Below are positions 34,958 to 49,729 of a DNA stretch of 64,000 bases, in pieces. Numbering within the stretch: position 1 is the first letter of the stretch; each line of letters opens with the position of its first letter. A program made the translations under genes and the position numbers. Below the pieces are notes generated by a model, which was not told where the DNA came from, did not search any database, and saw nothing but the letters and a program-made list of their open reading frames with translations. Source of the DNA: an uncultured Hyphomicrobiales bacterium (GTDB taxonomy: Bacteria; Pseudomonadota; Alphaproteobacteria; Reyranellales; JAQSWP01); contig CAYWLS010000005.1 of assembly GCA_964458605.1 (NCBI GenBank), forward strand, positions 81,244 through 145,243, in the 5' to 3' direction.

Positions 34958-35899
34958 CTATTCCATTACCTGGCGCGGGAAATAGCAGCTCACCACCCAG
35001 TTGGGCACGTCGACGATCGAGCTGATCTTCAGGTCGGCGCAGACGCTGCACAGCATATAGGCCTCGACCGGCTTGAAGCCGTGCTTCTTGGCCAGCAGCT
35101 CGACCATGCCCGACAGCGCAGCGCGTGCGCCCTGCATCAGGTCGGGCCCGATGCCGGTGGTGACCTCGTAGCCCTTGGCGTCGATGTGGTCGTTGACCGA
35201 GCCCGCGGTGCGATAGGTCGGGAACTTCAGATTGGCGCGCTTCACCAGGTCGAATTTCAGCGCCACGCCGATCGGACTCTCGATCGCCGTGCCGCACACC
35301 TCGCCGTCGCCCTGGGCGGCGTGGGTGTCGCCGACCGAGAACAGCGCGCCCTTGACCTCGATCGGCAAATAGAGCTCGGTGCCTTCGCAGATGTCGCGCA
35401 CGTCCATGTTGCCGCCGACCCGGCGCGGCGGAATGATCGAGTGATGGCCCGGCTCGACCGGCGCCACGCCGATGGTGCCGGTGAACGGGCGGATCGGCAC
35501 CCGGCCGCCGGGACCGTACATCGCCGGCGTCCGGCCGTCGGTGGCGTATTTCCAGTGATGCAGCGCTGCGTCGGGGAACTGGTCGGCCAGCAGGCCGAAG
35601 CCCGGGATGTTGGCCGTCCAGCCCCAGCCCGTGGGCTTGAAGCCCAGCATGGTGACCTTCAGCGCATCGCCCGGCTCGGCGCCGTCGATATAGACCGGGC
35701 CGGTGACCGGGTTGACCCGGCCGAGATCGAGCTTGGTGACGTCGGCCGCGGTCGAATCCGGATTGAGCTGGCCGCCCGAGGCGTCGCGCGTCTCGAACTC
35801 GACGCTTTCTCCGGGCGCAATTGTCAGCACCGGCTTGAAGCTGTTGTCCCAGCCGTTATGGCCATGTTCCTTGTGGATGGTGTGCTTGTGGCCGACCAT
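34958..35899 (-). CDS. acetamidase/formamidase (FmdA/AmdA) family amidohydrolase
   Basis: ATG with GGGAGG RBS inside artefact ORF 34958..36508. Family-typical TGPVYIDGAEPGD, GGNMD and SVGDTHAAQGDGEVCGTAIE. Confidence 0.9.
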   Translation of the reverse strand: MVGHKHTIHKEHGHNGWDNSFKPVLTIAPGESVEFETRDASGGQLNPDSTAADVTKLDLGRVNPVTGPVYIDGAEPGDALKVTMLGFKPTGWGWTANIPGFGLLADQFPDAALHHWKYATDGRTPAMYGPGGRVPIRPFTGTIGVAPVEPGHHSIIPPRRVGGNMDVRDICEGTELYLPIEVKGALFSVGDTHAAQGDGEVCGTAIESPIGVALKFDLVKRANLKFPTYRTAGSVNDHIDAKGYEVTTGIGPDLMQGARAALSGMVELLAKKHGFKPVEAYMLCSVCADLKISSIVDVPNWVVSCYFPRQVME

Positions 35900-35964
35900 G
35901 ATCGCCTCCCTGGCTGCGTGATGGATGGCGCGGCGCGCCCCGGCGGCGCCGCCCCGTGATGTGG

Positions 35965-36726
35965 CTAGAACTGCACGCGCTTGGTCAGCGCGCCATCGAC
36001 CATCAGATTGGTGCCGGTGACGAAGCTGGCCGCCGGGCTGGCCAGGAACGCCACCGCGTTGGCGATCTCCTCCGGCCGGGCCATGCGGCCCATCGGGTTG
36101 GAGGCCAGCGCCGATTTGTAGAGATCGGGCATGCCCTGCTCGATCCTGTGCCACACGCCGTCCTTGAAATAGGTGTTGCCGGGCGACACCACGTTGGCGC
36201 GGATGCCCTTGGGCGCGAGCTGGCTGGACAGGCCAGAGGTGTAATGGATCAGCGCCGCCTTCATCGCGCCGTAGGGGCCGGCGGCGAAATCGATCTCGAC
36301 GCCGGAGACCGAGGAGATCACCACGATCGAGCCGGCCTTGGATTTCTCCAGGTAAGGCATGGCCGCCTCGATGGCGCGCACCGTGCCCATCATGTCGACG
36401 TTGAACTCGGCGGCCCAGGAGTCCTCGTCCTTGTTGATGGCCAGCGCGCTGACATTGCACACCACGATGTCGATGCCGCCCAGCGCCTTGGCCGAATCGG
36501 CCACCCATTGCTTGAGCGCGGCGCCGTCGGCGATATCGACCGCCGCGCCATAGGCCTTGACGCCCTTGGCCTGCAGCGCCTTGACCGTGGCCTCGACCTC
36601 GGCGGCGTTGCGCGCGCAGATCGCCACGTCGGCGCCCTCCATGGCCAGCCGCTCGGCGGCGGCGCGGCCGATGCCCTTGGTGCCGCCGGTGACGATCGCC
36701 TTCTTGCCTTTGAGCTCCAGATCCAT
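35965..36726 (-). CDS. short-chain dehydrogenase/reductase
   Basis: TGGTKGIG and YGAMK motifs. 253 aa. Confidence 0.9.
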   Translation of the reverse strand: MDLELKGKKAIVTGGTKGIGRAAAERLAMEGADVAICARNAAEVEATVKALQAKGVKAYGAAVDIADGAALKQWVADSAKALGGIDIVVCNVSALAINKDEDSWAAEFNVDMMGTVRAIEAAMPYLEKSKAGSIVVISSVSGVEIDFAAGPYGAMKAALIHYTSGLSSQLAPKGIRANVVSPGNTYFKDGVWHRIEQGMPDLYKSALASNPMGRMARPEEIANAVAFLASPAASFVTGTNLMVDGALTKRVQF

Positions 36727-36778
36727 GGCTGCCTCCCGGTTTGTCTCTTGATCGCCCGTGCCGGGCGAGGGAAAGGAA

Positions 36779-37495
36779 CTATCCCGCCATGCCGACGAAC
36801 TCGCCCACCATGTCGGGATTGGACAATTGCTCGGGCGTCACCTCGCGGGTGATGGCGCCCTTCTGGATCATCAGGATGCGCTGCGACAGCGCGGCGATGA
36901 AGTCGAGATTCTGCTCGACCAGGATCACGGTCAGGCCGCTCTTGGCCTTCAGCCGCTGCAGGGTCTCGACGATCTCGTCGATGATCGAGGGCTGGATGCC
37001 TTCGGTCGGCTCGTCCAGCAGCAGCAGCCGCGGCCGGCCGCACAGGCAGCGGGCAATGGCCAGGAGCTGCTGCTCGCCGCCCGACAGGGCCCCGCCCTGG
37101 CGGTCGAGCAGGCGCTTGAGCCGCGGGAACTCCTCCAGCACCGTCTCGATCAGCCGCGCATCGTCGCCCTTCTCCTTGGCGCAGCCCATGCGCAGGTTCT
37201 CCATGACGCTGAGCGCGGGGAAGATGTCGCGGCCCTGCGGCACGTAGCCCATGCCCAGCCGCGCGCGCCTGTAGGGCGCCAGGTGGGTGACGTCCTGGTC
37301 CTGGAAGCGCACCGTGCCGGCGGTGGCCGGCAGGAAGCCCATCAGGGTGCGCAGCAGGCTGGTCTTGCCCATGCCGTTGTGGCCCAGGATGCCGACGAAC
37401 TCGCCCTCGGCCACCGCAAGGGAGGCGCCGTGCAGCACCGGGATGCGGCCATAGGCGGCGCGGATATTGTCGACCGCCAGCATCGTGCCGCCCAT
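36779..37495 (-). CDS. ABC transporter ATP-binding protein (LivF/UrtE-like)
   Basis: Walker A GHNGMGKTS and signature LSGGEQQ. The start ATG overlaps the upstream stop (TGATG). Confidence 0.9.
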   Translation of the reverse strand: MGGTMLAVDNIRAAYGRIPVLHGASLAVAEGEFVGILGHNGMGKTSLLRTLMGFLPATAGTVRFQDQDVTHLAPYRRARLGMGYVPQGRDIFPALSVMENLRMGCAKEKGDDARLIETVLEEFPRLKRLLDRQGGALSGGEQQLLAIARCLCGRPRLLLLDEPTEGIQPSIIDEIVETLQRLKAKSGLTVILVEQNLDFIAALSQRILMIQKGAITREVTPEQLSNPDMVGEFVGMAG

Positions 37496-38241
37496 CACGC
37501 CACCCGCTTGCCGAGATAGACGTCGCGCACCCGGGGGTCGCGCAGGATGACGTCGACCTGGTCCTCGGCCAGCACGCGGCCCTGGTCCAGCACCGTGACC
37601 TTGGAGGCGATCATGCGGATGAACTGCATGTCGTGCTCGACCACGATCAGCGATCGCGTCCGGTTGATGTCGCGGATCAGCGCGGCGGTCTTGTGCACTT
37701 CCTCGTGCGTCATGCCGGCGGCCGGCTCGTCGAGCAGGATCAGTTCGGGCTCCGCCGCCAGCAGCACGCCCAGCTCGACCCATTGGCGCTGGCCATGCGC
37801 CAACTGGCCGACCAGCCGGTGCGCCACATGGGTAAGATCGGTGCGGGTCAGGATCTCGTCGACCATCCGCTCGGCGGCGCTGCGGCCGCGGGTGCGGCTG
37901 GCGCCGATCCAGACATTCTCCCGCACGGTCAGCCCGTCGAACACCGAGGGCACCTGGGTCTTGATGCCGATGCCCAGCCGCGCGATCTCATGGGTATTGG
38001 CGTGGGAGATCACCTTGCCGCGATAGAGCACCTGGCCCTCGCTGGGAACGAGCTGGCCGGTCAGCAGCTTGAAGAAGGTCGACTTGCCCGCGCCGTTGGG
38101 GCCGATCAGGCAGCGCAGCTCCCCTTCCATGAGCCGGAAGTTCACGCCGCTGACCGCCTGCACGCCGCCGAAGCGCATGCCCAGGTCGCGCGTTTCGAGC
38201 AGCACGTTGCCGTCGCCGGCCTGGGGCGAGGCCGCGCTCAT
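37495..38241 (-). CDS. ABC transporter ATP-binding protein (LivG/UrtD-like)
   Basis: Walker A GPNGAGKST and Walker B LILLDEP. ATGA overlap with the permease gene. Confidence 0.9.
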   Translation of the reverse strand: MSAASPQAGDGNVLLETRDLGMRFGGVQAVSGVNFRLMEGELRCLIGPNGAGKSTFFKLLTGQLVPSEGQVLYRGKVISHANTHEIARLGIGIKTQVPSVFDGLTVRENVWIGASRTRGRSAAERMVDEILTRTDLTHVAHRLVGQLAHGQRQWVELGVLLAAEPELILLDEPAAGMTHEEVHKTAALIRDINRTRSLIVVEHDMQFIRMIASKVTVLDQGRVLAEDQVDVILRDPRVRDVYLGKRVA

Positions 38242-39380
38242 GGCAGCTTCTCCGTCTCGAGCTGCTGCACCATGGGAGCGCGGCGCAGCGGCAGCCAGGC
38301 GCGGAACAGATCGGCGATGCTGGGCACGATGCCCTTGGGCACCAGCAGCACGAAGGCCAGCAGCACCGCGCCCAGCACCAGGTTGGAATTGCTGAGGTCG
38401 ATGGTGCCGGCGATCGAGCCCACCACATGGCCGAACTCGCCGCCGCCCAGCGCCTTGTCGATCCAGGCGCCCATGCTCTTGCCGCCCAGTTGCACGGTGC
38501 CGAGCCAGGCGGTCAGCCACTGGATGCCGATGCATCCGACGATCGGGCCGATCAGGGTGCCGCGGCCGCCGACGATGACCCAGATGATGATCTGCGCCGA
38601 CTGGGCCAGGCCGAAGATGGTCGGGCTGACGAAGGCGCCCCAATTGGCGAACAGCACGCCGGCCATGCCGGCGATGGCGCCGCCGATGGTGAAGGTGGCC
38701 AGCTTGTAGGCGCGCGCGTCGTAGCCCAGGAACTCGGCGCGGCGCTCGTTCTGGCTGATCGCCACCACGACGCGGCCGAAATGGCTGACCAGCAGCCAGC
38801 GCAGGCCGAAATAGGTCAGCAGCAGCAGGCCCATCGACAGGTAGAACATGTCGTTGAGATCGAGCGCGGCGGACGCGTCGAACGGCATGTTGAGCGGCGG
38901 GATGGCCGGCACGCCGTTGAAGCCGCCCAGCATGGCGCTGCCGATGTGGTATTCCGGCCCGGCCGTCGAATTGATCGCGTTGAACAGGATCAGGGTCACG
39001 GTCAGCGTGATGACGCCGAGATAGACGTCGCTGATGCGGCCGTAGAACATGAAATAGCCCAGCAGCGCGGCGAAGGCGGCGGGCAGCGCGATGCCGGCCA
39101 GCGCCGGCACGGTGCTCTCGCCCATGTTGAACATGACGATGGCGTAGGTATAGGCGCCCAGGCCGAAGAAGGCGGCCTGGCCGAAGCACAAGATGCCGCC
39201 ATAGCCCCACACCAGGCCCAGGCTGAGCGCCAGGATCGCCATGATGAAATAGACCGTGATGTCGAGCAGCGTGGCGAGTTCGACGATCTGCGGCAGCAGG
39301 ATCAGGGCGGCGATGCCGGCCACGCCGGCGATCGCCAGGCCGGCCAAGGTCCAGGCGCGGTTGGCGGCGGCGTCCATCAC
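38238..39380 (-). CDS. branched-chain amino acid/urea-type ABC transporter permease (LivM/UrtC-like)
   Basis: 380-aa polytopic permease that overlaps the neighbouring genes. Confidence 0.88.
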   Translation of the reverse strand: MMDAAANRAWTLAGLAIAGVAGIAALILLPQIVELATLLDITVYFIMAILALSLGLVWGYGGILCFGQAAFFGLGAYTYAIVMFNMGESTVPALAGIALPAAFAALLGYFMFYGRISDVYLGVITLTVTLILFNAINSTAGPEYHIGSAMLGGFNGVPAIPPLNMPFDASAALDLNDMFYLSMGLLLLTYFGLRWLLVSHFGRVVVAISQNERRAEFLGYDARAYKLATFTIGGAIAGMAGVLFANWGAFVSPTIFGLAQSAQIIIWVIVGGRGTLIGPIVGCIGIQWLTAWLGTVQLGGKSMGAWIDKALGGGEFGHVVGSIAGTIDLSNSNLVLGAVLLAFVLLVPKGIVPSIADLFRAWLPLRRAPMVQQLETEKLP

Positions 39381-40252
39381 AGGCCCTTGCGGAAGAAGCG
39401 GCCGGTGATGCCCTGCGGCAGCACGCGGATCAGCACGACGGCGGCGGCCAGCGCCGCCACCACGCCGAACACCGGGGTGGTGAAGTAGATCGCCACTTCC
39501 TGGATGGTGGCGAACAGGGTCGAGGCGGAGATGGTGCCGGTCAGGATGGCGGCGCCGCCGCCGATCACGGTGATGAAGGCGCGCGCGATATAGGCCGCGC
39601 CGATGGTCGGGATGACGCCGGAGATCGGCGCCAGCAGGCCGCCGGCCAGGCCGGTCAGCGCGGCGCCGATGCCGAAGGTGACGGCATAGACCTTGGGCGG
39701 GCTGAGGCCCAGCGCCGCCGCCATGTTGGCGTTCTGCATGGTGCCGCGCGCGAACAGGCCGAGCCGGGTATAGCGCAGCACCAGGAAGATGGCGAACAGC
39801 AGCGCCACGGTGATGCCGATCAGCACCAGGCTGTAGATCGAGGTCGAATAGGCCCCGATCGGCGTGGCGCCCAGCGGCGCGGAGATGCCCGCCGTGGTAT
39901 TGCCGAAGATGGAGGTGACCAGGCCGATCAGGAACAGGCTCAAGCCCCAGGTCGCCAGCATGGTGTCGATCATGCGGCCGTAGAGGAAGCGGATCAGCAC
40001 CCGCTCCACCACCACGCCGATGATGCCGACCACCACCGGCGCCACCACCAGCATGCTGATCCAGATATTGACGCCCTGCTGGGTGGCGAAGATGGCGCTA
40101 TAGCCGCCCAGCATGAGGAATTCGCCATGCGCCAGGTTGATCACCCGCATCATGCCGAAGATGATGGCCAGACCGATGCTGATCAGCGCCAGGCTGGCGA
40201 TGGCGTAGAGCACTTGGATAGCCAGGAACAGGACCAGATCCACGATACGCAA
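39377..40252 (-). CDS. branched-chain amino acid/urea-type ABC transporter permease (LivH/UrtB-like)
   Basis: 291-aa polytopic permease. Confidence 0.88.
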   Translation of the reverse strand: MRIVDLVLFLAIQVLYAIASLALISIGLAIIFGMMRVINLAHGEFLMLGGYSAIFATQQGVNIWISMLVVAPVVVGIIGVVVERVLIRFLYGRMIDTMLATWGLSLFLIGLVTSIFGNTTAGISAPLGATPIGAYSTSIYSLVLIGITVALLFAIFLVLRYTRLGLFARGTMQNANMAAALGLSPPKVYAVTFGIGAALTGLAGGLLAPISGVIPTIGAAYIARAFITVIGGGAAILTGTISASTLFATIQEVAIYFTTPVFGVVAALAAAVVLIRVLPQGITGRFFRKGL

Positions 40253-40429
40253 TCCCCACTGCAGACGAGCCGGACCTGCGCGCGGCTCCCTGTTCCTATT
40301 GTCTCCCCAACCCTGTCGCTTGTGACCTGGATTCTTGCGCCCAGGTATGTCCCGGCCCTGCCGCCCGTCCGGCGCCGCGCGCCGCGCGGTCGCCGGACCC
40401 GCGCACAGGGCGCGGGCCCGGCCGGCCGG

Positions 40430-41677
40430 CTAGAGCTTGATGTTGGTGTTGTACTGCTTGTTGTCGTTGGGGTTCTTGATCAGGTTGCAGACCGCCTCGG
40501 TGTCGGTCGGCTTCTGCTGCGGGAAGCTGGCCAGCACCTTGCACTTCTTGTTCTCGACCTCGGCCATGTAGATGTCGAGGATGCAGTGATGGGTCGGCGG
40601 ATCGATCGTCACCTTGCCCGAGGGGGCGTCGATGCTCAGCCCCTTCTCCAGCGTCTCGATCACCTTCATGCGGTCGATCGACTTGGCCTGCTTGACCGCC
40701 TCGGCCCACAGGTAGAAGCCCTGGTAGGTGCCGACCGCCAGGCCGGTGATGTAGGGGTAGTCGGCGCCGAAGCGCTTGTGGAAGCGATCGACGAAGGCCT
40801 TGTTGGCCGGGGTGTCGATCTCCTGGAAATAGTTGTAGGCGACGACGATGCCGTTGGCCTCTTCCGGCGCCAGCACGATGTGCTCGTTGCCCAGCGCGAA
40901 GGTGGTCGAGGCCATCGGGATCTTCTTGTTCATGCCGGCGGCGGCCCACTGGCGATAGAACGAGATATGCGCGCCGCCGACCAGCGCCGACCACACGTAG
41001 TCGGGCTTGGCGGCCTGGATCTTGGCGATCGACGGGCCGAAATTGGTGACGTCGAGCGGGAAGAACTCCACCGCCACCGTCTCGCCGCCGTTGTCCTTGG
41101 TGTATTTCTGCACCCACTGCGCGGTGATCTGGCCGTAATTGTAGTCGGCGGCGACGATATAGACCTTCTTGCCCCACTTCTTGATGTTGGCCGGCACCAG
41201 CTTCTCGACCTGCTGGGCCGGCGTGGAACCGACGGTGAATTCGTTGCGGTCGCAGACGCCGCCTTCGTACTGGGTGTTGTAGAAATACAGCGTCTTGAAG
41301 CGGTCCAGCACCGGGCGGATCACCTCGCGCGAGGCCGAGGTGATGCCGCCATGCACCACCGCGACCTTCTGCTTCAGCGCCGCGTCCTGGGCGTATTGGG
41401 TGTAGAGCTGCATGTTGGACTGCGGGTCGTAGTTGACCAGCTCGACCTTCTTGCCCAGCAGGCCGCCGGCGGCGTTGACCTCCTCGACCGCGAGCGTGAT
41501 GGCGTCGGACATCGGCTTGCCGTAGATGTCGAGACCGCCCGACAGGTCGTGGATCGAACCGACCTTGATGGTGTCCTCGGCGAAGGCGCGCGAGGAAACG
41601 ATGGCGGGAGCTGCCAGCACGGCGGCCGTGGCGGCGGTGGACTTGAGGAACTGTCTGCGATCGAGCTTGATATCCAT
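40430..41677 (-). CDS. periplasmic substrate-binding protein, urea/short-chain-amide type (UrtA/FmdD-like), Tat signal
   Basis: Twin-arginine signal DRRQFLKSTAATAAVLAAPA..AFA. Type I periplasmic binding fold resembling amide/urea binders. Confidence 0.88.
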   Translation of the reverse strand: MDIKLDRRQFLKSTAATAAVLAAPAIVSSRAFAEDTIKVGSIHDLSGGLDIYGKPMSDAITLAVEEVNAAGGLLGKKVELVNYDPQSNMQLYTQYAQDAALKQKVAVVHGGITSASREVIRPVLDRFKTLYFYNTQYEGGVCDRNEFTVGSTPAQQVEKLVPANIKKWGKKVYIVAADYNYGQITAQWVQKYTKDNGGETVAVEFFPLDVTNFGPSIAKIQAAKPDYVWSALVGGAHISFYRQWAAAGMNKKIPMASTTFALGNEHIVLAPEEANGIVVAYNYFQEIDTPANKAFVDRFHKRFGADYPYITGLAVGTYQGFYLWAEAVKQAKSIDRMKVIETLEKGLSIDAPSGKVTIDPPTHHCILDIYMAEVENKKCKVLASFPQQKPTDTEAVCNLIKNPNDNKQYNTNIKL

Positions 41678-41915
41678 TTGAATGTCACCTTATTGCGGGT
41701 TGGATATGGTGCAGCGTCCCGCCTCGATAATCCAGTGATTCGCGCAGGACATTACGTCTCTCACCGGTGAAATGCGACATGACACAGTTTTGCGTCTGGA
41801 CGACCAGCGCGCGTCGCGACCGCCGACGCTGCGACACCTTGAGGATACGCCGCCCGATGGCGCGCCGCATGGCGCCGCTGCCGAACTGCAATCTCGCCGC
41901 CATTTAAGGGCAGAC

Positions 41916-41940
41916 TATTTTACTTTTCAAGTAATTTTGC
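41916..41940 (+). promoter_or_regulatory. AT-rich operator-like motif, copy 1 (upstream of the ABC/formamidase operon)
   Basis: TATTTTACTTTTCAAGTAATTTTGC matches the copy at 45883..45907 at 23 of 25 positions. Confidence 0.55.
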
Positions 41941-41971
41941 GCCGCGTCGCGAACCGCGCGCCGGCCGCGCC

Positions 41972-43216
41972 TCAATGCGCGGGAAAGCGCTGCAGGATGC
42001 GGAAGTCCAGGCCGTCGGCCTCGGCCAGATAGATATCGGAACGCAGGTGGCGCGCCCGCATCGAGGCGTTGCCGCGCGCGCCGAAACCGGTCAGCCCCTC
42101 GCTGGCCTTGCCCAGCGCGGCGACGTCGAAGGCGCCGGCGCGGCGCACCAGCTCGCCGTAGAGCCGCACGCCTTCGTAGCAGGACTGGCCGATGGTGTTG
42201 GGCATCGGCGCATCGGCGCCGAAGGCGGCGTAGTAACGATCGAGGAAGGCCTCGTTCTCCGCCGTGCGCATGTTGGACAGATAGCCGGCGGCGAAATAGA
42301 GGTTCTCGGCATTGTCGGCACCGATGCCCAGCAGGGTGTTCTCCTCGCTGGCCGCCGACAGGCGCAGCATGTGCCGCGCCAGTCCCGATTCGGCGAAGGC
42401 GCGGTTGAAGGCGACGCAGTCGTTGCCGACCATCGACACCAGCACCGCATCGGCGCGCGACTTGCGAATGGCGTCGAGCGTGGCGTCGTAGTCCTCGGTG
42501 CCGAACGGCACGAAGGTCTCGCCGACGATCTCGCCGCCGTTCTTGGCGACGTAGCGGCGCGCCGCCTCGTGCGACACGCGCGGCCAGATATAGTCGTTGC
42601 CGGCAAGGTACCAGCGCCGCACATGGCGGTGCTCGGCCATCCAGGCGATCGACGGCCGCAACTGCAGCGCCGGCGTCTCGCCGATCATGAACACGCCGGG
42701 GGTCTGCTCGCCGCCCTCGTAGACCGGCGTATAGACATAGGGCACCCGCCCGCGCAGCGCGCGCACCAGCGCCAGGCGCACGGCGCTGATATGCATGCCG
42801 ATCACCGCCTCGGCGCCGCTTTCGGTTACCAGCTTCATGGTCTCTTCGGTGACGATCTCGGGCGAGCAGCCGGCATCGGTGAACAGCAGTTCGACCTCGC
42901 GGCCCTCGATGCCGCCGCGGGCGTTGATCTCCTGCGAGGCCAGCAGCGCGCTGGTCTGGCAGGACGGCCCCCACAATCCGGCCGGGCCGCTGAGCGGCGC
43001 CAGCAAGGCGATGCGCAGCTTGTCGAAACGACGGCGCGGCCCAGGCGTGAAATCGGGATGCAGGCTGCGCCGCGCCAGACGCCGTTCGATCAGCACATTG
43101 GGCGGCACGACGCGACCGGCCGCCGCGCCGGCGATGCCCCGCGCGCCGTTGCCGTGCCACAGCCGGGCCATGTCCCTGGCCGCTCGACCGATCGATTTGC
43201 TGGCCGACATTGCCAT
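41972..43216 (-). CDS. AmiC-like cytoplasmic ligand-binding protein (type I periplasmic-binding-protein fold, no signal peptide)
   Basis: ATG 43216 inside ORF 41972..43378. Leu/Ile/Val-binding-protein-like sequence preceded by a basic, non-hydrophobic N-terminus. Confidence 0.8.
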   Translation of the reverse strand: MAMSASKSIGRAARDMARLWHGNGARGIAGAAAGRVVPPNVLIERRLARRSLHPDFTPGPRRRFDKLRIALLAPLSGPAGLWGPSCQTSALLASQEINARGGIEGREVELLFTDAGCSPEIVTEETMKLVTESGAEAVIGMHISAVRLALVRALRGRVPYVYTPVYEGGEQTPGVFMIGETPALQLRPSIAWMAEHRHVRRWYLAGNDYIWPRVSHEAARRYVAKNGGEIVGETFVPFGTEDYDATLDAIRKSRADAVLVSMVGNDCVAFNRAFAESGLARHMLRLSAASEENTLLGIGADNAENLYFAAGYLSNMRTAENEAFLDRYYAAFGADAPMPNTIGQSCYEGVRLYGELVRRAGAFDVAALGKASEGLTGFGARGNASMRARHLRSDIYLAEADGLDFRILQRFPAH

Positions 43217-43263
43217 GTCGTCCCCGCCCCGTTTGTCAGCAAACCGTAGCACCCGGCTGGATG

Positions 43264-43277
43264 CTTGAAAAGTCAAA
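43264..43277 (-). promoter_or_regulatory. half-site copy of the AT-rich motif in the amiC-like/marR divergent promoter
   Basis: The reverse complement, TTTGACTTTTCAAG, matches TTTTACTTTTCAAG of copy 1 at 13 of 14 positions. Confidence 0.4.
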
Positions 43278-43332
43278 CTCTTTGGCTCATATAGGACGGC
43301 CAAGAGAACCGCCGTAAAAAGCAACCAACGCC

Positions 43333-43806
43333 ATGAAACAAGCCGCCAAGCAAGCCGCCAGGCCCGCCGAGAAATCACCGCGCAACCGCCCGATCGCCGA
43401 CTACCTGGCCTATCTGCTGACCCAGGCCGAGCGGCAGATCAACCAGCGGCTGGACGTCGAATTCAAGGCCGAGGGGGTACCGGTCGAACAGTGGCGCATC
43501 CTCAAGCTGCTGGCCGAGCGCAACGGCCGCTCGATGGTCGACCTGGCGCAGGCGGCGTTGCTGAAGCACCCGACCCTGACCAAGACCATCGACCGCATGA
43601 TCTCCCAGGCGCTGGTCTATCGCCGCGCCGACCGCGGCGACGGACGCAAGGTGCTGATCTTCGTTTCCGAGCGCGGCAAGCAGGTCAACGAGCGGCTCAA
43701 CCGGCTGGCCAATCTGCACCAGGACGAGATTGTGGAAAGCTGCGGCAACCGCGACGCCGAGGAGTTGAAGCGCCTGCTCGAGGGGCTAATCAAAAGGACG
43801 GCGTAA
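43333..43806 (+). CDS. MarR family transcriptional regulator
   Basis: Winged-helix MarR core (WRILKLLAERNGRSMVDLAQAALLKHPTLTKTIDRM). 157 aa. Confidence 0.9.
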   Translation: MKQAAKQAARPAEKSPRNRPIADYLAYLLTQAERQINQRLDVEFKAEGVPVEQWRILKLLAERNGRSMVDLAQAALLKHPTLTKTIDRMISQALVYRRADRGDGRKVLIFVSERGKQVNERLNRLANLHQDEIVESCGNRDAEELKRLLEGLIKRTA

Positions 43807-43811
43807 AAATC

Positions 43812-43846
43812 GTCACCCCGGCCGAGCGCAGCGAGAGCCGGAGCCC
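43812..43846 (+). repeat. REP-like palindromic element, left flank of GIY-YIG ORF
   Basis: GTCACCCCGGCCGAGCGCAGCGAGAGCCGGAGCCC closely resembles the reverse complement of 44227..44263. Confidence 0.6.
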
Positions 43847-43870
43847 ATGTCGCGCCACAACAGAGTTTTC

Positions 43871-44173
43871 CTAGGGCGGCGGCTGCAAGCTGTCGTAAAG
43901 ATCGACCCAGTGCAGGTTCGCCTTTTCGATCAGCTCGATCTTCCACTGTGGTAGCCACTTCTTCAGCCGTATCTCCTGCGCGATGGCGCCTTCGGCTGTC
44001 GCATAATTCTCATACCAGACCAGCAGCGTAATGTTGTGGGTCTTGGTAAAGCCCTCGACAGCTTTGCTGCGATGCTCCCAGATGCGCCGAGCGATATCAT
44101 TGGTCACGCCGACATAGAGCGTTCCATGCGGCTTATTGGTTGGGATGTACACGAAGTAGCTGCGGTCTTGCAT
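43871..44173 (-). CDS. GIY-YIG nuclease family protein (UPF0213-like, 100 aa)
   Basis: YFVYI..GTLYVGVTNDIARRIWEH GIY-YIG core. Confidence 0.88.
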   Translation of the reverse strand: MQDRSYFVYIPTNKPHGTLYVGVTNDIARRIWEHRSKAVEGFTKTHNITLLVWYENYATAEGAIAQEIRLKKWLPQWKIELIEKANLHWVDLYDSLQPPP

Positions 44174-44226
44174 AGCAGCAGATTACCAACTCTCTACTGC
44201 TCTAGGCCGTTCGTTGTATCGACATG

Positions 44227-44263
44227 GACCCCGGGGTCTCGCTGACGCTCGCCCCGGGGTGAC
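44227..44263 (-). repeat. REP-like palindromic element, right flank of GIY-YIG ORF (inverted relative to the left copy)
   Basis: GACCCCGGGGTCTCGCTGACGCTCGCCCCGGGGTGAC is internally a CCCCGGGG hairpin. Its reverse complement, GTCACCCCGGGGCGAGCGTCAGCGAGACCCCGGGGTC, aligns with 43812..43846. Confidence 0.6.
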
Positions 44264-44273
44264 GAATCTCAAG

Positions 44274-45806
44274 TCACCGCTTCTGCCAATCCCCCAACTG
44301 CTCGACCGCATGGGCGGCGCGGATGGTGGCGGCTTCGTCGAAGTGTTTGCCCACCAGCATGATGCCGATCGGCAGGCCGTCGACCGTGCCGCAGGGCGCG
44401 GTGAAGGCCGGGTGGCCGGACACGTCGAACGGACAGGTGTTCTGCTGCATGTTCAACGCCAGGTCGACATAGTCCTCGCGGCTGGCATCGAGGCCGGGAA
44501 TCTTGGTCGCCGGGAACGGCAGGGTCGGCATGGCCAGCACGTCGTATTTCCGCAGCGCCGCGTCGTAGGCGGCGCGCAGCCCGACGCGCAGGTTCTGCGC
44601 CTTGGCGTGGTAGCGGTTGTGGTAGTGGGTGTGCATGTAGTCGCCCAGCAGCAACACGAGTTTCACCGTCTCCGAGACATCGTCGGCGCGGGCCCGCCAG
44701 CCGCGCGCGAAAGCCTCCTGCAGGGAGGTGGTGTAGTAGCCCATCCAGTTGTTGCCCATGGCGTAGCCCTTGATCATCATCTCGGCCGCGCCTTCCAGGA
44801 TCACCCCGGTCCAGATATGCGGCGCGTCGAGATGCTCGGGGATCGACACCGCCTCGACGATGGCGCCGGCCTTCTTCAATGCCGCCAAGGTCTGCTTCAC
44901 CTTCCTGTCGGTCTGCGGCGTCAGCCTGTTGCCGGTGGGATGGCCGAAACCCTGCGGCAGCACGCCGATCTTCAGGCCCCTGACGCTCTTCTTCAGCGCC
45001 CCGCGATAGTCGCCGACGGCGGCGTTGATGGTGCGCGGATCGTGCGGATCGGGCCCGGCAATGACGCTCAGCAGCAGCGCCACGCTCTCGACGCTGTCGC
45101 AGATCGGCCCGCAGTGATCGACCGAATAGGAGATCGGCATGCTGCCGGTGGTCGGCACCAGGCCCCAGGTGGGCTTCAGCCCGTAGACGCCGCACCAGCC
45201 GGAGGGCGTGCGGATCGAGCCGCCCTGGTCGCCGCCGATCGCCATCGTTACCTCGCCCGCCGCCACCAGCGCGGCGCTGCCGCCGGACGAGCCGCCGGCC
45301 GAATGGGCGGGATTGCGCGGGTTGCGGATCGGCCCGGTGGCGCAGGTGTGGCTGCCGGCGGAGAAGCACAGATCCTCGCAGGCCGCCTTGCCGGCGATGG
45401 TGCCGCCGGCCTCGAGGATGCGCGTCACCACTGTGGCGTCGATATCGGGCACGTAGCCTTCGAGCAGCCGCGAGCCGTTCATCATCGGCACGCCGGCGAC
45501 GCAGATATTGTCCTTGATGGCGACGCGCTTGCCGGCAAGCGGCCCCTTGGCCGCGCCGGCGATGTCGCATTTCCAGTACCAGGCGTTGAACGGATTGTCC
45601 TTCACGTCCGGCCGATGGCCCGGCGTGCGCGGATAGGCGACCGGCAGCTTGGGCTCGGCCAGCTCGTCGAGCCGCGCATAGGACGCCATCGAGCCCGCCA
45701 TCAGGCCACGGAACGACACCGCGTCCTCCTGGGTCAGGGTCAGGCCGAATTTGCGGCCGATGGCGATGAGCTGCTCGGGCGTGGGCAGGCGCGGCGGAAT
45801 GGACAT
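44274..45806 (-). CDS. amidase-signature (AS) family amidase
   Basis: GGSSGGSAA signature and Ser-cisSer-Lys context. 510 aa. Confidence 0.92.
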   Translation of the reverse strand: MSIPPRLPTPEQLIAIGRKFGLTLTQEDAVSFRGLMAGSMASYARLDELAEPKLPVAYPRTPGHRPDVKDNPFNAWYWKCDIAGAAKGPLAGKRVAIKDNICVAGVPMMNGSRLLEGYVPDIDATVVTRILEAGGTIAGKAACEDLCFSAGSHTCATGPIRNPRNPAHSAGGSSGGSAALVAAGEVTMAIGGDQGGSIRTPSGWCGVYGLKPTWGLVPTTGSMPISYSVDHCGPICDSVESVALLLSVIAGPDPHDPRTINAAVGDYRGALKKSVRGLKIGVLPQGFGHPTGNRLTPQTDRKVKQTLAALKKAGAIVEAVSIPEHLDAPHIWTGVILEGAAEMMIKGYAMGNNWMGYYTTSLQEAFARGWRARADDVSETVKLVLLLGDYMHTHYHNRYHAKAQNLRVGLRAAYDAALRKYDVLAMPTLPFPATKIPGLDASREDYVDLALNMQQNTCPFDVSGHPAFTAPCGTVDGLPIGIMLVGKHFDEAATIRAAHAVEQLGDWQKR

Positions 45807-45882
45807 GCTTTCTCCTACTGGCTGGCGCGAGCCGCGGCGAGCGGCCGGCGCTGGCGGAACCGAGCCGGATTAGACGGCGCTT

Positions 45883-45907
45883 TATTTTACTTTTCAATCA
45901 ATTTTGC
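45883..45907 (+). promoter_or_regulatory. AT-rich operator-like motif, copy 2 (between divergent amidase genes)
   Basis: TATTTTACTTTTCAATCAATTTTGC. A CATAAT -10-like hexamer lies at 45915..45920, ahead of ATG 45963. Confidence 0.55.
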
Positions 45908-45962
45908 CCCAGGGCATAATGCGGCGACGCCAACCGCATTTCGCCATTTCGGAGGGAGCATC

Positions 45963-47477
45963 ATGACGATCAAGCGCGCCACTTTGGGCCAGTTGCAGGA
46001 CATCGCCCGCGATCTGGGCATCACCATGACCGACGAGCGCGCCGCCGAATTCCTCGGCCTGATGCAGGGCAATTTCGACGCCTACGAGATCCTCGAGCAG
46101 ATGCCGGACTACAAGCCGGTGGTGAAGTATCCGCGCACGCCCGGCTATCGGCCCGAGGGCGCGGAGAACAAATACAACGCCTGGTACGTCAAGAGCACGG
46201 TCAAGGGCGCCGATTCGGGCAAGCTCAAAGGCAAGACCGTGGTGCTGAAGGACAATGTCTGCCTGGCCGGCGTGCCGATGATGAACGGCGCCTCGACCCT
46301 GGAAGGCTACACGCCCGACATCGACGCCACCATCGTCACGCGCATCCTCGACGCCGGCGGCACCATCGTCGGCAAGGCGCATTGCGAATTCTTCTGCCTG
46401 TCCGGCGGCAGCCACACCAACGCCATTGCCCCGGTGCACAACCCGTGGAAGATGGGCCACTCCGCCGGCGGCTCCTCCTCGGGCTCGGGCGCGCTGGTGG
46501 CGGCGGGCGAGGTCGATATGGCGATCGGCGGCGACCAGGGCGGCTCGATCCGCATGCCCTCCTCGTTCTGCGGCATCTACGGCATGAAGCCGACCCACGG
46601 CCTGGTGCCCTATACCGGGGTGATGCCGATCGAAGCCACGATCGATCACACCGGACCGATGACCAAGGACGTGGCCGACAACGCGCTGATGCTGGAGGTG
46701 CTGGCCGGCGAGGACGGACTCGACCCGCGCCAATACGCGCCCAAGGTGCACGACTACACCAAGGCGCTGGGCAAGGACGTCAAGGGCCTGAAGATCGCCG
46801 TGGTCAAGCAGGGCTTCGGCCACGCCAATTCGGAGAAGGATGTCGACGACTGCGTGCGCGCCGGCGCCGCGCACTTCAAGACGCTGGGCGCCACGGTCGA
46901 GGAGATCGACCTGCCGATGCATGCGCTGGGCCCGGTGATCTGGACGCCGGTGGCGCTGGAAGGCCTGCAGGCGCAGATGATGTGGGGCAATGGCATGGGC
47001 TACAACTGGAAGGGGCTCTACACCACCAGCCTGCTCGACGCCCACGCCAACTGGCGCGCCAGGGCCGACGAGCTGTCGGACAGCCTGAAGATCTCGATGT
47101 TCGTCGGCGAATATTTCATCAAGCACTATCGCGGCCACTACTACGCCAAGGCGCAGAACCTGGCGCGCAAGCTGAAGGCGGCCTACGACGCGGTGCTGGG
47201 CCAGTACGACCTGCTGCTGATGCCGACCCTGCCGGTCAAGTCGACGCCGATCCCGCCGGCCGACGCGCCGCTGGCGCTCTACCTGCAGCGCGCCTTCGAG
47301 ATGATCGGCAACACCGCGCCGTTCGACGTCACCGGCCACCCGTCGATGACCATTCCCTGCGGCCTGCGCGAGGGCCTGCCGGTCGGGCTGATGCTGACGG
47401 GCAGGAGCTACGACGAGCCGACCATCTATCGCGCCGCCCATGCCTTCGAGCAGAGCGGCGACTGGAAGAAGATGTAA
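45963..47477 (+). CDS. amidase-signature (AS) family amidase (paralogue of 44274..45806)
   Basis: ATG 45963 with GGAGGGA RBS, in frame within artefact ORF 44214..47477. GGSSSGSGA signature. Confidence 0.92.
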   Translation: MTIKRATLGQLQDIARDLGITMTDERAAEFLGLMQGNFDAYEILEQMPDYKPVVKYPRTPGYRPEGAENKYNAWYVKSTVKGADSGKLKGKTVVLKDNVCLAGVPMMNGASTLEGYTPDIDATIVTRILDAGGTIVGKAHCEFFCLSGGSHTNAIAPVHNPWKMGHSAGGSSSGSGALVAAGEVDMAIGGDQGGSIRMPSSFCGIYGMKPTHGLVPYTGVMPIEATIDHTGPMTKDVADNALMLEVLAGEDGLDPRQYAPKVHDYTKALGKDVKGLKIAVVKQGFGHANSEKDVDDCVRAGAAHFKTLGATVEEIDLPMHALGPVIWTPVALEGLQAQMMWGNGMGYNWKGLYTTSLLDAHANWRARADELSDSLKISMFVGEYFIKHYRGHYYAKAQNLARKLKAAYDAVLGQYDLLLMPTLPVKSTPIPPADAPLALYLQRAFEMIGNTAPFDVTGHPSMTIPCGLREGLPVGLMLTGRSYDEPTIYRAAHAFEQSGDWKKM

Positions 47478-47547: not shown

Positions 47548-47847
47548 TCAAAGCCGCTGCGATAGGCGGGCTTTGGCGTGGCGGTCTCTCCAGACGCGCT
47601 CGAACGCCTCGCGGCTGATTTCGACGGGCTCAAATACCGGATTGCTGGCGATCTCGGCAAGGGGCGGCACCGGATAGACGCCTAGACCGGTATCGCCGAC
47701 TTCTCCGGTCGCATCGGCATAGCCGCAGCTTCCATCGGCATGAAGCTCGACCTTGCGAACCTCATAGCGCTCCTCGTCCAGCTCGCTATAGAGCCAGACC
47801 GGCAGATCGGCGTCGGAATGGATCCATTTGACCTTGATATCGCGCAT
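47548..47847 (-). CDS. hypothetical 99-aa protein
   Basis: Clean ORF in lower-G+C DNA with an AT-rich divergent promoter shared with kptA. Function not recognised. Confidence 0.6.
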   Translation of the reverse strand: MRDIKVKWIHSDADLPVWLYSELDEERYEVRKVELHADGSCGYADATGEVGDTGLGVYPVPPLAEIASNPVFEPVEISREAFERVWRDRHAKARLSQRL

Positions 47848-47894
47848 AATGATCTATCAATATATTTACATTCCGCTTCGACGCCACTGCATGC

Positions 47895-48444
47895 ATGGCC
47901 AAGACTGACGAATCGCTGAGCAAATATCTCAGCTACATCCTGCGCCACCGGCCCGACGAGATCGGGCTGCAGCTCGATGGGCAGGGTTGGGCCGCGGTGG
48001 CGGAACTGCTGGCCAAGAGCGCGGCGCACGGCCGCCCTATCGACTTCGGCGCTTTGGTGAATGTCGTCGAGAACGGAGCCAAGAGCCTCGTCCTTGTCCG
48101 AAAACCGGACTCGGATCCGCGCATTGCAAGGGCATTCCGTCCCGATCGAGCTTGGCTTGCAGCCGGTGCAGCCGCCCGCGCTTCTGTACCACGGCACCGC
48201 CTTGAAGTTTCTCGATTCGATCCTGCGGACAGGGCTGGCGAAACAGGCGCGCCATCACGTCCATTTGTCGAGCACGCCGGACAGCGCCTGGATCGTCGGG
48301 CGCCGACGCGGCAAGGCCGCGATACTCCAAATACAGGCGGAACGGATGCACCGCGACGGTTTTGCGTTCATGCGAGCCGAGAACGACGTCTGGCTGACCG
48401 ATGCCGTGCCGACGAAGTATTTCAAACTGCTAGCTCAAGATTGA
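47895..48444 (+). pseudogene. kptA: RNA 2'-phosphotransferase KptA/Tpt1, interrupted by a single frameshift
   Basis: The N-terminal part is in the 47895 frame (LSKYLSYILRHRPDEIGLQLDGQGWAAV..VVENGAK). The remainder is in the 48061 frame (SENRTRIRALQGHSV..LLYHGT..HHVHLS..NDVWLT). The junction lies near 48075..48095. Confidence 0.8.
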
Positions 48445-48553
48445 GCCGCGGCGGCGATAGTGGACTCTGGCGATAGTGGACTCTAGAGCCCGACGCTCGC
48501 TTCAGGAACCGACTTTGTCACCCCCCGCATCAGCGTTTTGACCTCCGCCCGCT

Positions 48554-48904
48554 TCATGATAAGCCGAACTGGGCCTTGAATTCGCTCTCGCTGATGACGC
48601 TGACGGGTAGAAACAGCGACTTGTCGTCGGGATCGCGCAAGCCATCGATGTTCAACATGTGCGGCGTCGGCGGATAGGTGCACACGACCTGGGCCACGAA
48701 CGCTTTGCCCGCCAGATCGGGATTGTCCTTGGCCGCGCGGCCGGCTTCGGCGAAGTGCATGCACAGCCCCGGCTTCTTGTGTAGCAGTTCCTCACGCTCA
48801 CGCGGATCGCCGATCGGCTCGTTGTCGAAGATCACCAGCGCCAGGCGGTGGTCGTCGTTGGGCAGCCGCACCACCATGTCGATCGCATCGCTTCTCAGGC
48901 TCAT
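48554..48904 (-). CDS. immunity-like small protein (paralogue of 60865..61257)
   Basis: 116 aa. Shares the identical 13-mer QVVCTYPPTPHML and a C-terminal E.F.AQFG motif with 60865..61257. Downstream of the toxin-like gene. Confidence 0.7.
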   Translation of the reverse strand: MSLRSDAIDMVVRLPNDDHRLALVIFDNEPIGDPREREELLHKKPGLCMHFAEAGRAAKDNPDLAGKAFVAQVVCTYPPTPHMLNIDGLRDPDDKSLFLPVSVISESEFKAQFGLS

Positions 48905-48952
48905 GGTTTCACCGAAAGATAAGAGTTCGGATGGATTGGCATCGGTCAGGCA

Positions 48953-49714
48953 TCAATACCGATCGCGCAGCGACGGCAGATCGCGCGGCACGAAGCCATG
49001 ACGCTCTCGGAATTCGGCCTCGGTCACGAACTCGACCGGCAACACGATATCAGGGTATGTCGGATCGCTTACCGATGTGATCGCGCGCATTGCCGGGGTC
49101 GGCATCGCGGCATAGACAACTTCGATCAACGGCCTATCGCTAGAGAACACATAATTATATTCCTCGAAGTCCCCCGAGGCGACACGAGCGGCGCAGCGCA
49201 GCAGCTTTTCATGCAGCGTTGCCTCTCGCTGTGCGGCGCTGGCCACTCGGCCGTCATCCAGCACTACAATAGTGCCGCCGAGTTGCTGGCCCTTGACGTG
49301 CACAAGGAGATCTCCGGGAGATCGCCCGATCCACGTCAGCCATTCGACGCCCAGCTTGATCCGTTGCTGAACCTCATTTAGGGACAAAATTGTATACGAC
49401 TCGTTACCGGCCCAGACATCATCCCATGCTGGTAAGTGGAGCAGAAGAGGATCAGGACTTCTTCCTCTATAGGCCAATTGCGTGATGAACGGCCGAGGCG
49501 TCCCTGTCGCCGTTGCTAGATTTGCACGATCTTCGGGCAAGTCCCACTCAGATTCGGGCTCGCCGTCAAAATAGAGTTCCAGCCACGCCAAGTCATCAAC
49601 ATTACAATGCAAGACATTATTCCATGCATAGGTTTCTCCAAAATTCCGAAAGCACGCCGTAAGGACGCCGATATCCAGCGGCTTTTTGGAGAAGAAGAAA
49701 AAAGAGTTCGCCAC
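48953..49714 (-). CDS. immunity-like protein, fusion of two domains found as separate genes at 61257..61655 and 60865..61257
   Basis: 253 aa. The N-half aligns to the 132-aa ORF (NESYTILSLNEVQQRIKLGVEW vs NEYGVIFTVREIQRRLKSGEEW). The C-half aligns to the 130-aa ORF (EAEFRERHGF vs LEGFYAQFGM). It begins 15 nt after the toxin stop. Confidence 0.7.
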   Translation of the reverse strand: MANSFFFFSKKPLDIGVLTACFRNFGETYAWNNVLHCNVDDLAWLELYFDGEPESEWDLPEDRANLATATGTPRPFITQLAYRGRSPDPLLLHLPAWDDVWAGNESYTILSLNEVQQRIKLGVEWLTWIGRSPGDLLVHVKGQQLGGTIVVLDDGRVASAAQREATLHEKLLRCAARVASGDFEEYNYVFSSDRPLIEVVYAAMPTPAMRAITSVSDPTYPDIVLPVEFVTEAEFRERHGFVPRDLPSLRDRY

Positions 49715-49729
49715 GTTGAATCCTCAATC

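Follow-up and report, generated by a model that had tools for sequence, protein, structure and literature searches.

A conserved AT-rich element in an amide-utilisation gene cluster of Reyranellales-like Alphaproteobacteria, a probable promoter-operator for the adjacent MarR-family regulator

The genome assembly of an uncultured Hyphomicrobiales bacterium (GCA_964458605.1), placed by GTDB in the Reyranellales, includes a cluster of genes for the uptake and hydrolysis of amides, and we have examined a short AT-rich element that recurs among their promoters. The cluster lies within a 64,000-nucleotide stretch of contig CAYWLS010000005.1 (positions 81,244 to 145,243 of the forward strand), to which we refer as the window and to which coordinates apply unless another locus is named. 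The element is present at three sites: S1 lies ahead of an operon encoding an ABC transporter, S2 between two divergent amidase genes, and S3 between the gene for a MarR-family regulator (marR) and a divergent gene for an AmiC-like protein. Its distribution supports the view that it is a shared cis-regulatory element joining the uptake, hydrolysis and regulator genes, and we consider it probable that each site is a composite of promoter and operator at which the product of the adjacent marR gene would act as a repressor. Such an operator would be of ordinary design, and new for this lineage.

Two near-identical 25-mers were the basis of the original prediction, and these, TATTTTACTTTTCAAGTAATTTTGC at 41916-41940 and TATTTTACTTTTCAATCAATTTTGC at 45883-45907, do agree at 23 of 25 positions; with up to three mismatches allowed the 25-mer matches twice in the window and not once in 100 dinucleotide-preserving shuffles. 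The description of the sites as AT islands in GC-rich DNA is also borne out, as 50-nt segments at all three have a GC content of 0.42-0.50 compared with 0.67 for the whole window, and Pfam confirms the gene context that had been proposed, comprising an operon for a substrate-binding protein (SBP), permeases, ATPases, a short-chain dehydrogenase (SDR) and an amidase, the divergent amidases, and the AmiC-like/marR pair. The third site was correctly located at 43264-43277, the reverse complement of which is TTTGACTTTTCAAG, but it had been labeled a half-site and is instead a full-length variant site that is kept in relatives. The 9-mer ACTTTTCAA, with at most one mismatch, is confined to the three sites across the 64 kb, and a weight-matrix scan of the window likewise recovers these three sites only (scores in Table 1), the best score in 30 random 64-kb sequences being 17.4 bits. 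The matrix was trained on 19 sites, the window's own among them; sites outside the training set, in loci L038, L053, L067, L076 and L086, score 36-44 bits.

The conserved core is about 19-21 bp long with the consensus TTnCTTGAAAAGTnAAATA, and read toward the transporter operon, the 510-aa amidase gene and marR the sites take the form CTTGAAAAGTnAAA. S1 is 31 nt past the AmiC-like stop codon and 241 nt upstream of the ATG of the SBP gene, and S3 is approximately 50 nt upstream of the marR ATG. Two partial dyads can be recognized. The window's S1 and both sites of L005 have a perfect TTACTT-N3-AAGTAA, an arrangement also found within some S2 sites; TTGAA-N2-TTCAA is approached by the S3 core (TTGAAAAGTCAA) with one mismatch in the window and is perfect in Vineibacter, and the information content across the sites is asymmetric.

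The relatives used for comparison are ten looked-up contigs that encode MarR homologues and one Pleomorphomonas plasmid (the useful one among plasmid matches that were all only 60-80% identical), together with genomes found by the pattern scan described below. Some 13 related genomes or contigs, assigned to Reyranella, Reyranellales and related Alphaproteobacteria, carry the element in the same three places: one between the stop codon of the AmiC-like gene and the transporter operon, one ahead of the 510-aa amidase gene, and one in the marR/AmiC-like divergent region. Among them are L002, L004, L005, L006, L008 and L009, as well as further genomes from the pattern scan. Sites orthologous to S1 are present in L005, L006, L008, L009, L002, L038, L053, L067 and L109; S2 forms an invariant block in an alignment of six orthologous intergenic regions; and S3 is conserved in seven aligned loci (L002, L004, L005, L006, L008, L038 and L076). 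Alignments of the orthologous regions show intergenic DNA around the sites to be poorly conserved while the motif is invariant. The proteins of L067 (Reyranellales) are 82-94% identical to those of the window, and this places the source organism. The earlier proposal that the element ties the uptake, hydrolysis and regulator genes together therefore stands, given the same three positions in relatives, the diverged flanks, and its absence elsewhere in the window.

Altogether 32 sites score at least 25 bits, and their information content is high only over TT..TTGAAAAGT.AAATA. Conservation thereby runs some 10 bp beyond a hexamer resembling a promoter -35 box and into what would be the spacer, a part of sigma-70 promoters in which no specific sequence is needed. 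The promoter of the regulator itself keeps a variant of its own, AGTCAAACT.

The marR gene diverges from a gene for an AmiC-like protein without a signal sequence in all 14 loci examined, those of Pleomorphomonas, Vineibacter and a distant, paralogous system included. In every related locus fetched the pair has the same ABC transporter, and at least one amidase, as its neighbours, and no other regulator is conserved beside it across the 14 loci. It is from this invariant linkage, and from the site at the promoter of marR itself, that we infer MarR to be the binder. The Pleomorphomonas locus is informative in this regard, since its MarR is 35% identical and it has the same layout with another sequence: a different motif, TTCAAATATTGA, occurs exactly twice in 21 kb, at the positions equivalent to S1 and S3, and two matches are reached in 0 of 100 shuffles. 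This is the pattern expected of an operator that co-evolves with a locally encoded regulator. In Vineibacter, whose MarR is about 60% identical, the sites have diverged, and one of their versions is the perfect palindrome TTGAAATTTCAA.

In L107 (8440-8640) a site follows marR and is inverted with respect to the transporter operon. A perfect TTGACA lies immediately upstream of this site, which is itself upstream of a Band_7/flotillin gene that precedes the transporter genes. In L008 (16100-19950) a site of the S2 type lies among fragmented amidase open reading frames (ORFs) and an N-terminal fragment of a nitrile-hydratase beta subunit, which hints at either a regulon link to nitrile metabolism or a decaying locus. 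In a second, distant system (L034 14-42; L044 3200-3228; L100 4178-4206), where the MarR is 32-36%, the AmiC-like protein 47% and the amidase about 33% identical, the core is unchanged (CCTTGAAAAGTAAAATATTAAAAAGGCAA) and ends about 25 nt ahead of the marR ATG, and this suggests either cross-regulation or an unusually conserved DNA specificity.

We also searched 185,579 species genomes for exact occurrences of the 19-mer pattern TATTTTACTTTTCAAGNAA, and obtained 96 matches. The 96 loci have a median GC content of 38%, and the 84 matches in loci below 55% GC look like chance occurrences in AT-rich taxa. Ten of the 12 matches in loci above 55% GC adjoin clusters of MarR, AmiC-like and amidase genes, in Reyranella, Reyranellales and other alphaproteobacterial bins; the remaining two, L041 (inside an AT-rich island) and L065 (Puniceicoccales), have no link to such a cluster and were treated as chance. 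There are at most two exact copies in any one genome, and where there are two both are always within the cluster. By this exact-match scan the element is thus not scattered over many unrelated loci; such scattering would have spoken against the original prediction. A dispersed repeat (REP, MITE or a generic AT-rich element) was rejected, as all three sites in the 64 kb are in the cluster and exact copies never exceed two per genome.

Each site appears to overlap core promoter elements, with S2 and S3 each predicted to serve two divergent genes; all of the promoter assignments in Table 1 derive from consensus matches. Predicted transcription starts fall near 41895 (-), 45862 (-), 45927 (+) and 43236 (-). 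The motif contains TTGAAA and, on the opposite strand, TTTTCA; these share 5 bp and form back-to-back -35-like hexamers, the former a match to the -35 consensus at five of six positions. A (T/C)TAAT-like box lies 17 nt from TTGAAA, and CATAMT and TGnTAC are conserved 17-18 nt from TTTTCA. At S1 the downstream box in relatives is TTAAAT, TCTAAT or TTTAAT, and at the putative promoter of the 510-aa amidase gene it is TCTAAT, TTAGAT, ATCAAT, ATGAAT or CTTAAT. For the 504-aa amidase gene the -10 box is kept as CATAAT, CATACT or AATAAT, and in the window its pairing with TTTTCA is the sole sigma-70-like call made by a promoter scanner in 41600-46100. A CATAAT -10 box with the motif lying over the -35 region was anticipated in the original prediction, and this holds apart from the distance to the 25-mer, which is 7 nt rather than 8 nt. 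The plus-strand promoter for this amidase gene is also supported as a putative one, although the best case for a promoter is found on the other strand, where TTGAAA faces the transporter operon and the 510-aa amidase gene. At the putative AmiC-like promoter GTA.CACC is invariant in the seven-locus alignment, and L002 has TACAAT at that position.

In relatives TTGCCA-N17-TATCAA is found just upstream of S3, so that S3 would fall at the marR start, whereas in the window GCTGGA stands where that -10 would be and no canonical marR -10 can be assigned. A wider island is conserved beside S3 in relatives, CTTGCCAA...ACCGTAGCACCCCTATCAAT (window 43228-43262; L005 9905-9950 and equivalents), which probably holds the marR -35 and -10 together with the AmiC-like -10. 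The window retains GTAGCACC of this island but carries GGCTGGAT instead of CTATCAAT, suggesting turnover of the marR promoter. On the transporter side, the stretch from the putative S1 promoter to the SBP ATG (41678-41895) forms a GC-rich leader of about 218 nt, which in L005 measures only about 60 nt and in L067 about 130 nt. A known RNA element or riboswitch in the leaders was considered and rejected: Rfam gives no meaningful match in 41500-46200, the sole hit up to E = 1 being a miRNA family that scores 22 bits where the gathering score is 90, and a scan of the leaders found no terminator-like site.

We propose that the three sites serve a single small amide-catabolism regulon as its operators, and that each is combined with elements of a core promoter. 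The -35 hexamers covered would be that of the transporter operon at S1, those of both divergent amidase genes at S2, and that of the AmiC-like gene at S3; in relatives S3 would likely also cover the marR start region. A MarR-family dimer bound at these sites would block RNA polymerase and repress uptake, both amidases, the sensor gene and marR itself, and the signal-less AmiC-like protein would bind an amide and relieve repression, most likely through protein-protein contact with MarR. In this scheme the promoters and the binder are predictions, and so are the sign of regulation and the ligand or inducer.

A rival explanation is a promoter module with no dedicated repressor, in which a -35 hexamer lies between an A/T-rich element upstream and a suitable spacer, and which RNA polymerase reads directly with a housekeeping or alternative sigma factor. 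The quality of the TTGAAA hexamer and the A/T-rich hexamer 17 nt downstream of it favour this explanation, as does the orientation toward the downstream gene that nearly all sites keep, and CTTGAAA resembles the -35 boxes of heat-shock sigma factors. We nonetheless consider it unlikely, because AGTnAAATA is strongly conserved inside the spacer, because a promoter class should recur whereas this element is limited to one cluster, both in the 64 kb and in the related loci, and because the regulator's own promoter keeps a distinct variant, the L107 element is inverted relative to its transporter operon, and Pleomorphomonas retains a two-site layout with a different sequence. It is the conserved bases in a spacer that needs none, the restriction to a single cluster, the variant at marR, the inverted L107 site and the two partial dyads that point to an operator superimposed on the promoter. 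A sigma-54 promoter (TGGCAC-N5-TTGC) can be set aside, as neither strand at any of the three sites has GG-N10-GC in register, and taking TTTTGC as the -12 element places CA at -24.

If there is an operator, its binder could be a protein other than the adjacent MarR, such as a global regulator of nitrogen or carbon metabolism, a nucleoid protein with a preference for AT-rich DNA, or a factor whose gene lies elsewhere and which the AmiC-like protein controls. An identical core beside a MarR that is only 32-36% identical, and the asymmetric information content, would fit such a binder, which sequence alone cannot identify; but no other regulator is conserved in the neighbourhood, the sites are confined to the cluster in a manner unlike that of a global regulon, and the motif changes along with the local MarR in Pleomorphomonas, so that we give this explanation only a small chance of being correct. 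By spacing the sites are also neither sigma-54 nor FNR/FixK sites: the CRP-family box is TTGAT-N4-ATCAA (TTGA-N6-TCAA), whereas S3 has TTGA-N4-TCAA and S1 and S2 are without a second arm. A further variation, in which MarR does bind but is an amide-dependent activator with the AmiC-like protein as co-activator, would account for the weak -10-like boxes, which would suit activator-dependent promoters, and the MarR-like NhhD of Rhodococcus rhodochrous J1 is reportedly a positive regulator. The sites are, however, centred on the -35 and the spacer upstream, and on the marR start region in relatives, which is the usual position for occlusion and not for recruitment, and we regard activation as quite improbable.

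Repression by MarR from a composite promoter-operator is thus the explanation that we favour, and several observations weigh against it. The conserved positions are asymmetric and neither dyad accounts for all of them, and an orientation relative to the downstream gene that is fixed in about 30 of 31 sites would suit a promoter element equally well. The -10-like boxes paired with TTGAAA are without the usual A at position 2, and the scanner made no call there. The 17-nt core in L034, L044 and L100 is identical despite the distance of their MarR, and the Vineibacter sites are more diverged despite a MarR that is closer, which is contrary to a simple co-evolution of regulator and operator. The MarR recognition helix, PTLTKTIDRM, is nearly invariant among lineages with different motifs, which neither backs nor refutes a role for MarR.

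A more general proposal, to which we give somewhat less than even odds, is that the divergent pair of a signal-less AmiC-type protein and a MarR constitutes a widespread and uncharacterised two-protein amide switch of soil Alphaproteobacteria, signalling by direct contact, acting at the level of initiation, and using an operator that doubles as a shared -35. It would resemble AmiC-AmiR while acting at transcription initiation, and one bound dimer would silence both directions.

The genes of the cluster are listed with the sites and putative promoters in Table 1. The AmiC-like protein matches the Pseudomonas aeruginosa AmiC structure 1pea at 2.8e-25, and also urea-binding proteins. Its N-terminus has no signal-like hydrophobic segment and the fold begins at DKLRIALLAPLSG, as read from the sequence, whereas the transporter's binding protein carries a twin-arginine (TAT) signal; the AmiC-like protein is accordingly predicted to be cytoplasmic. 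For MarR the best match of known structure is 7kfo (5e-19), the best NCBIfam model is HpaR (below its cutoff), and 178 homologues are found at E <= 1e-10, mostly metagenomic. Between marR and the 510-aa amidase gene is a 100-aa GIY-YIG ORF (43871-44173, minus strand) flanked by imperfect inverted repeats at 43810-43852 and 44220-44265. The segment 43810-44265 looks like a small inserted GIY-YIG cassette, because marR directly abuts the 510-aa amidase gene in relatives. Downstream of the amidases, the genes in 47548-52384 may form a foreign island; they include a DUF6881 gene (47548-47847), an ORF (47895-48476) that matches the N-terminal part only of the Tpt1/KptA RNA 2'-phosphotransferase model, and two ORFs of 253 aa (48953-49714) and 884 aa (49730-52384) without any Pfam match.

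Table 1. Sites of the conserved element, putative promoters and genes of the amide-utilisation cluster, in window coordinates.
Feature	Position	Strand	Basis or remarks
Site S1	41912..41940	-	GCAAAATTACTTGAAAAGTAAAATAGTCT, read toward transporter operon; 45.4 bits
Site S2, between divergent amidase genes	45879..45907	-	GCAAAATTGATTGAAAAGTAAAATAAAGC, read toward 510-aa amidase gene; 41.2 bits
Site S3, marR/AmiC-like divergent region	43255..43283	+	GGCTGGATGCTTGAAAAGTCAAACTCTTT; 33.4 bits
Putative transporter-operon promoter	41902..41930	-	TTGAAA (41930-41925), 17-nt spacer, TTAAAT (41907-41902)
Putative 510-aa amidase promoter	45869..45897	-	TTGAAA (45897-45892), 17-nt spacer, TCTAAT (45874-45869)
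Putative 504-aa amidase promoter	45891..45920	+	TTTTCA (45891-45896), 18-nt spacer, CATAAT (45915-45920)
Putative AmiC-like gene promoter	43243..43271	-	TTTTCA (43271-43266), 17-nt spacer, extended -10 TGCTACGGT (43251-43243); ATG ~43216
FmdA/AmdA-family amidase	34958 to ~35950	-	Pfam
SDR	35965-36726	-	Pfam
Two ABC ATPases	36779-38241	-	Pfam
Two permeases	38238-40252	-	Pfam
TAT-signal SBP	40430-41677	-	Pfam
Putative target operon (SBP, permeases, ATPases, SDR, FmdA/AmdA amidase)	34958..41677	-	Pfam; same gene order in relatives
AmiC-like Peripla_BP_6 protein, candidate amide sensor	41972 to ~43216	-	Pfam; exact start codon uncertain
MarR-family winged-helix regulator, candidate binder	43333-43806	+	Pfam MarR_2 (PF12802) and MarR (PF01047)
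510-aa amidase-signature enzyme, putative target	44274-45806	-	Pfam Amidase; NCBIfam PRK07235 above cutoff
504-aa amidase-signature enzyme, putative target	45963-47477	+	Pfam Amidase; NCBIfam PRK07235 above cutoff

These predictions describe a testable regulon for the uptake and hydrolysis of short-chain amides in Reyranellales-like soil Alphaproteobacteria, which are known mostly from metagenomes. It would consist of three operators, one MarR, one AmiC-like sensor, an importer and three amidase-type enzymes, and could possibly yield an amide-inducible expression switch.

In its general plan the system resembles the autoregulated operators of MarR proteins such as those of the E. coli marO, OhrR and HpaR/HpcR types, in which the winged-helix MarR gene adjoins its targets, a partial-dyad site of about 20 bp lies over core promoter elements, including those in the region of the regulator's own promoter, and the regulon is small and local. 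It differs in that the dyad is imperfect and the conserved positions asymmetric, in that the core is made of two overlapping back-to-back -35 hexamers, and in that the conserved partner is a sensor of the binding-protein type, so that the ligand may not bind MarR itself.

The closest logic, by analogy, is that of the actinobacterial pairs NhlC/NhlD and NhhC/NhhD of Rhodococcus rhodochrous J1 and AmiC/AmiA(/AmiD) of Mycobacterium smegmatis, in which a cytoplasmic AmiC homologue and a MarR-type regulator are encoded beside amidase genes and an amide product or substrate would be sensed. NhlD, NhhD and AmiA are all said to be MarR-like. The window system belongs to a different phylum, its amidases are of other families, its putative regulon includes an ABC importer, and it is without equivalents of AmiD or AmiS. 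In M. smegmatis AmiC and AmiD are positive and AmiA negative regulators, as stated in a review (PMC12719403).

A signal-less AmiC-type protein encoded with genes for amide uptake and hydrolysis is also a feature of the AmiC/AmiR system of P. aeruginosa and of the rhizobial ANTAR systems; FmdA operons in the Rhizobiales have a cytoplasmic binding protein together with ANTAR systems (bioRxiv 10.1101/2024.02.22.581678). No ANTAR gene is present among the cluster genes or in the gene tables of the 14 related loci, the 64-kb window as a whole not having been scanned exhaustively, and antitermination of the AmiC/AmiR type was rejected, as the AmiC-type protein is there but has neither an ANTAR partner nor a terminator or hexaloop RNA target in a leader. 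The output partner in the window is instead a DNA-binding MarR rather than an RNA-binding ANTAR antiterminator, and if the AmiC-like protein does control MarR, this would be a compact system in which to study how an AmiC-type sensor is coupled to a DNA-binding regulator.

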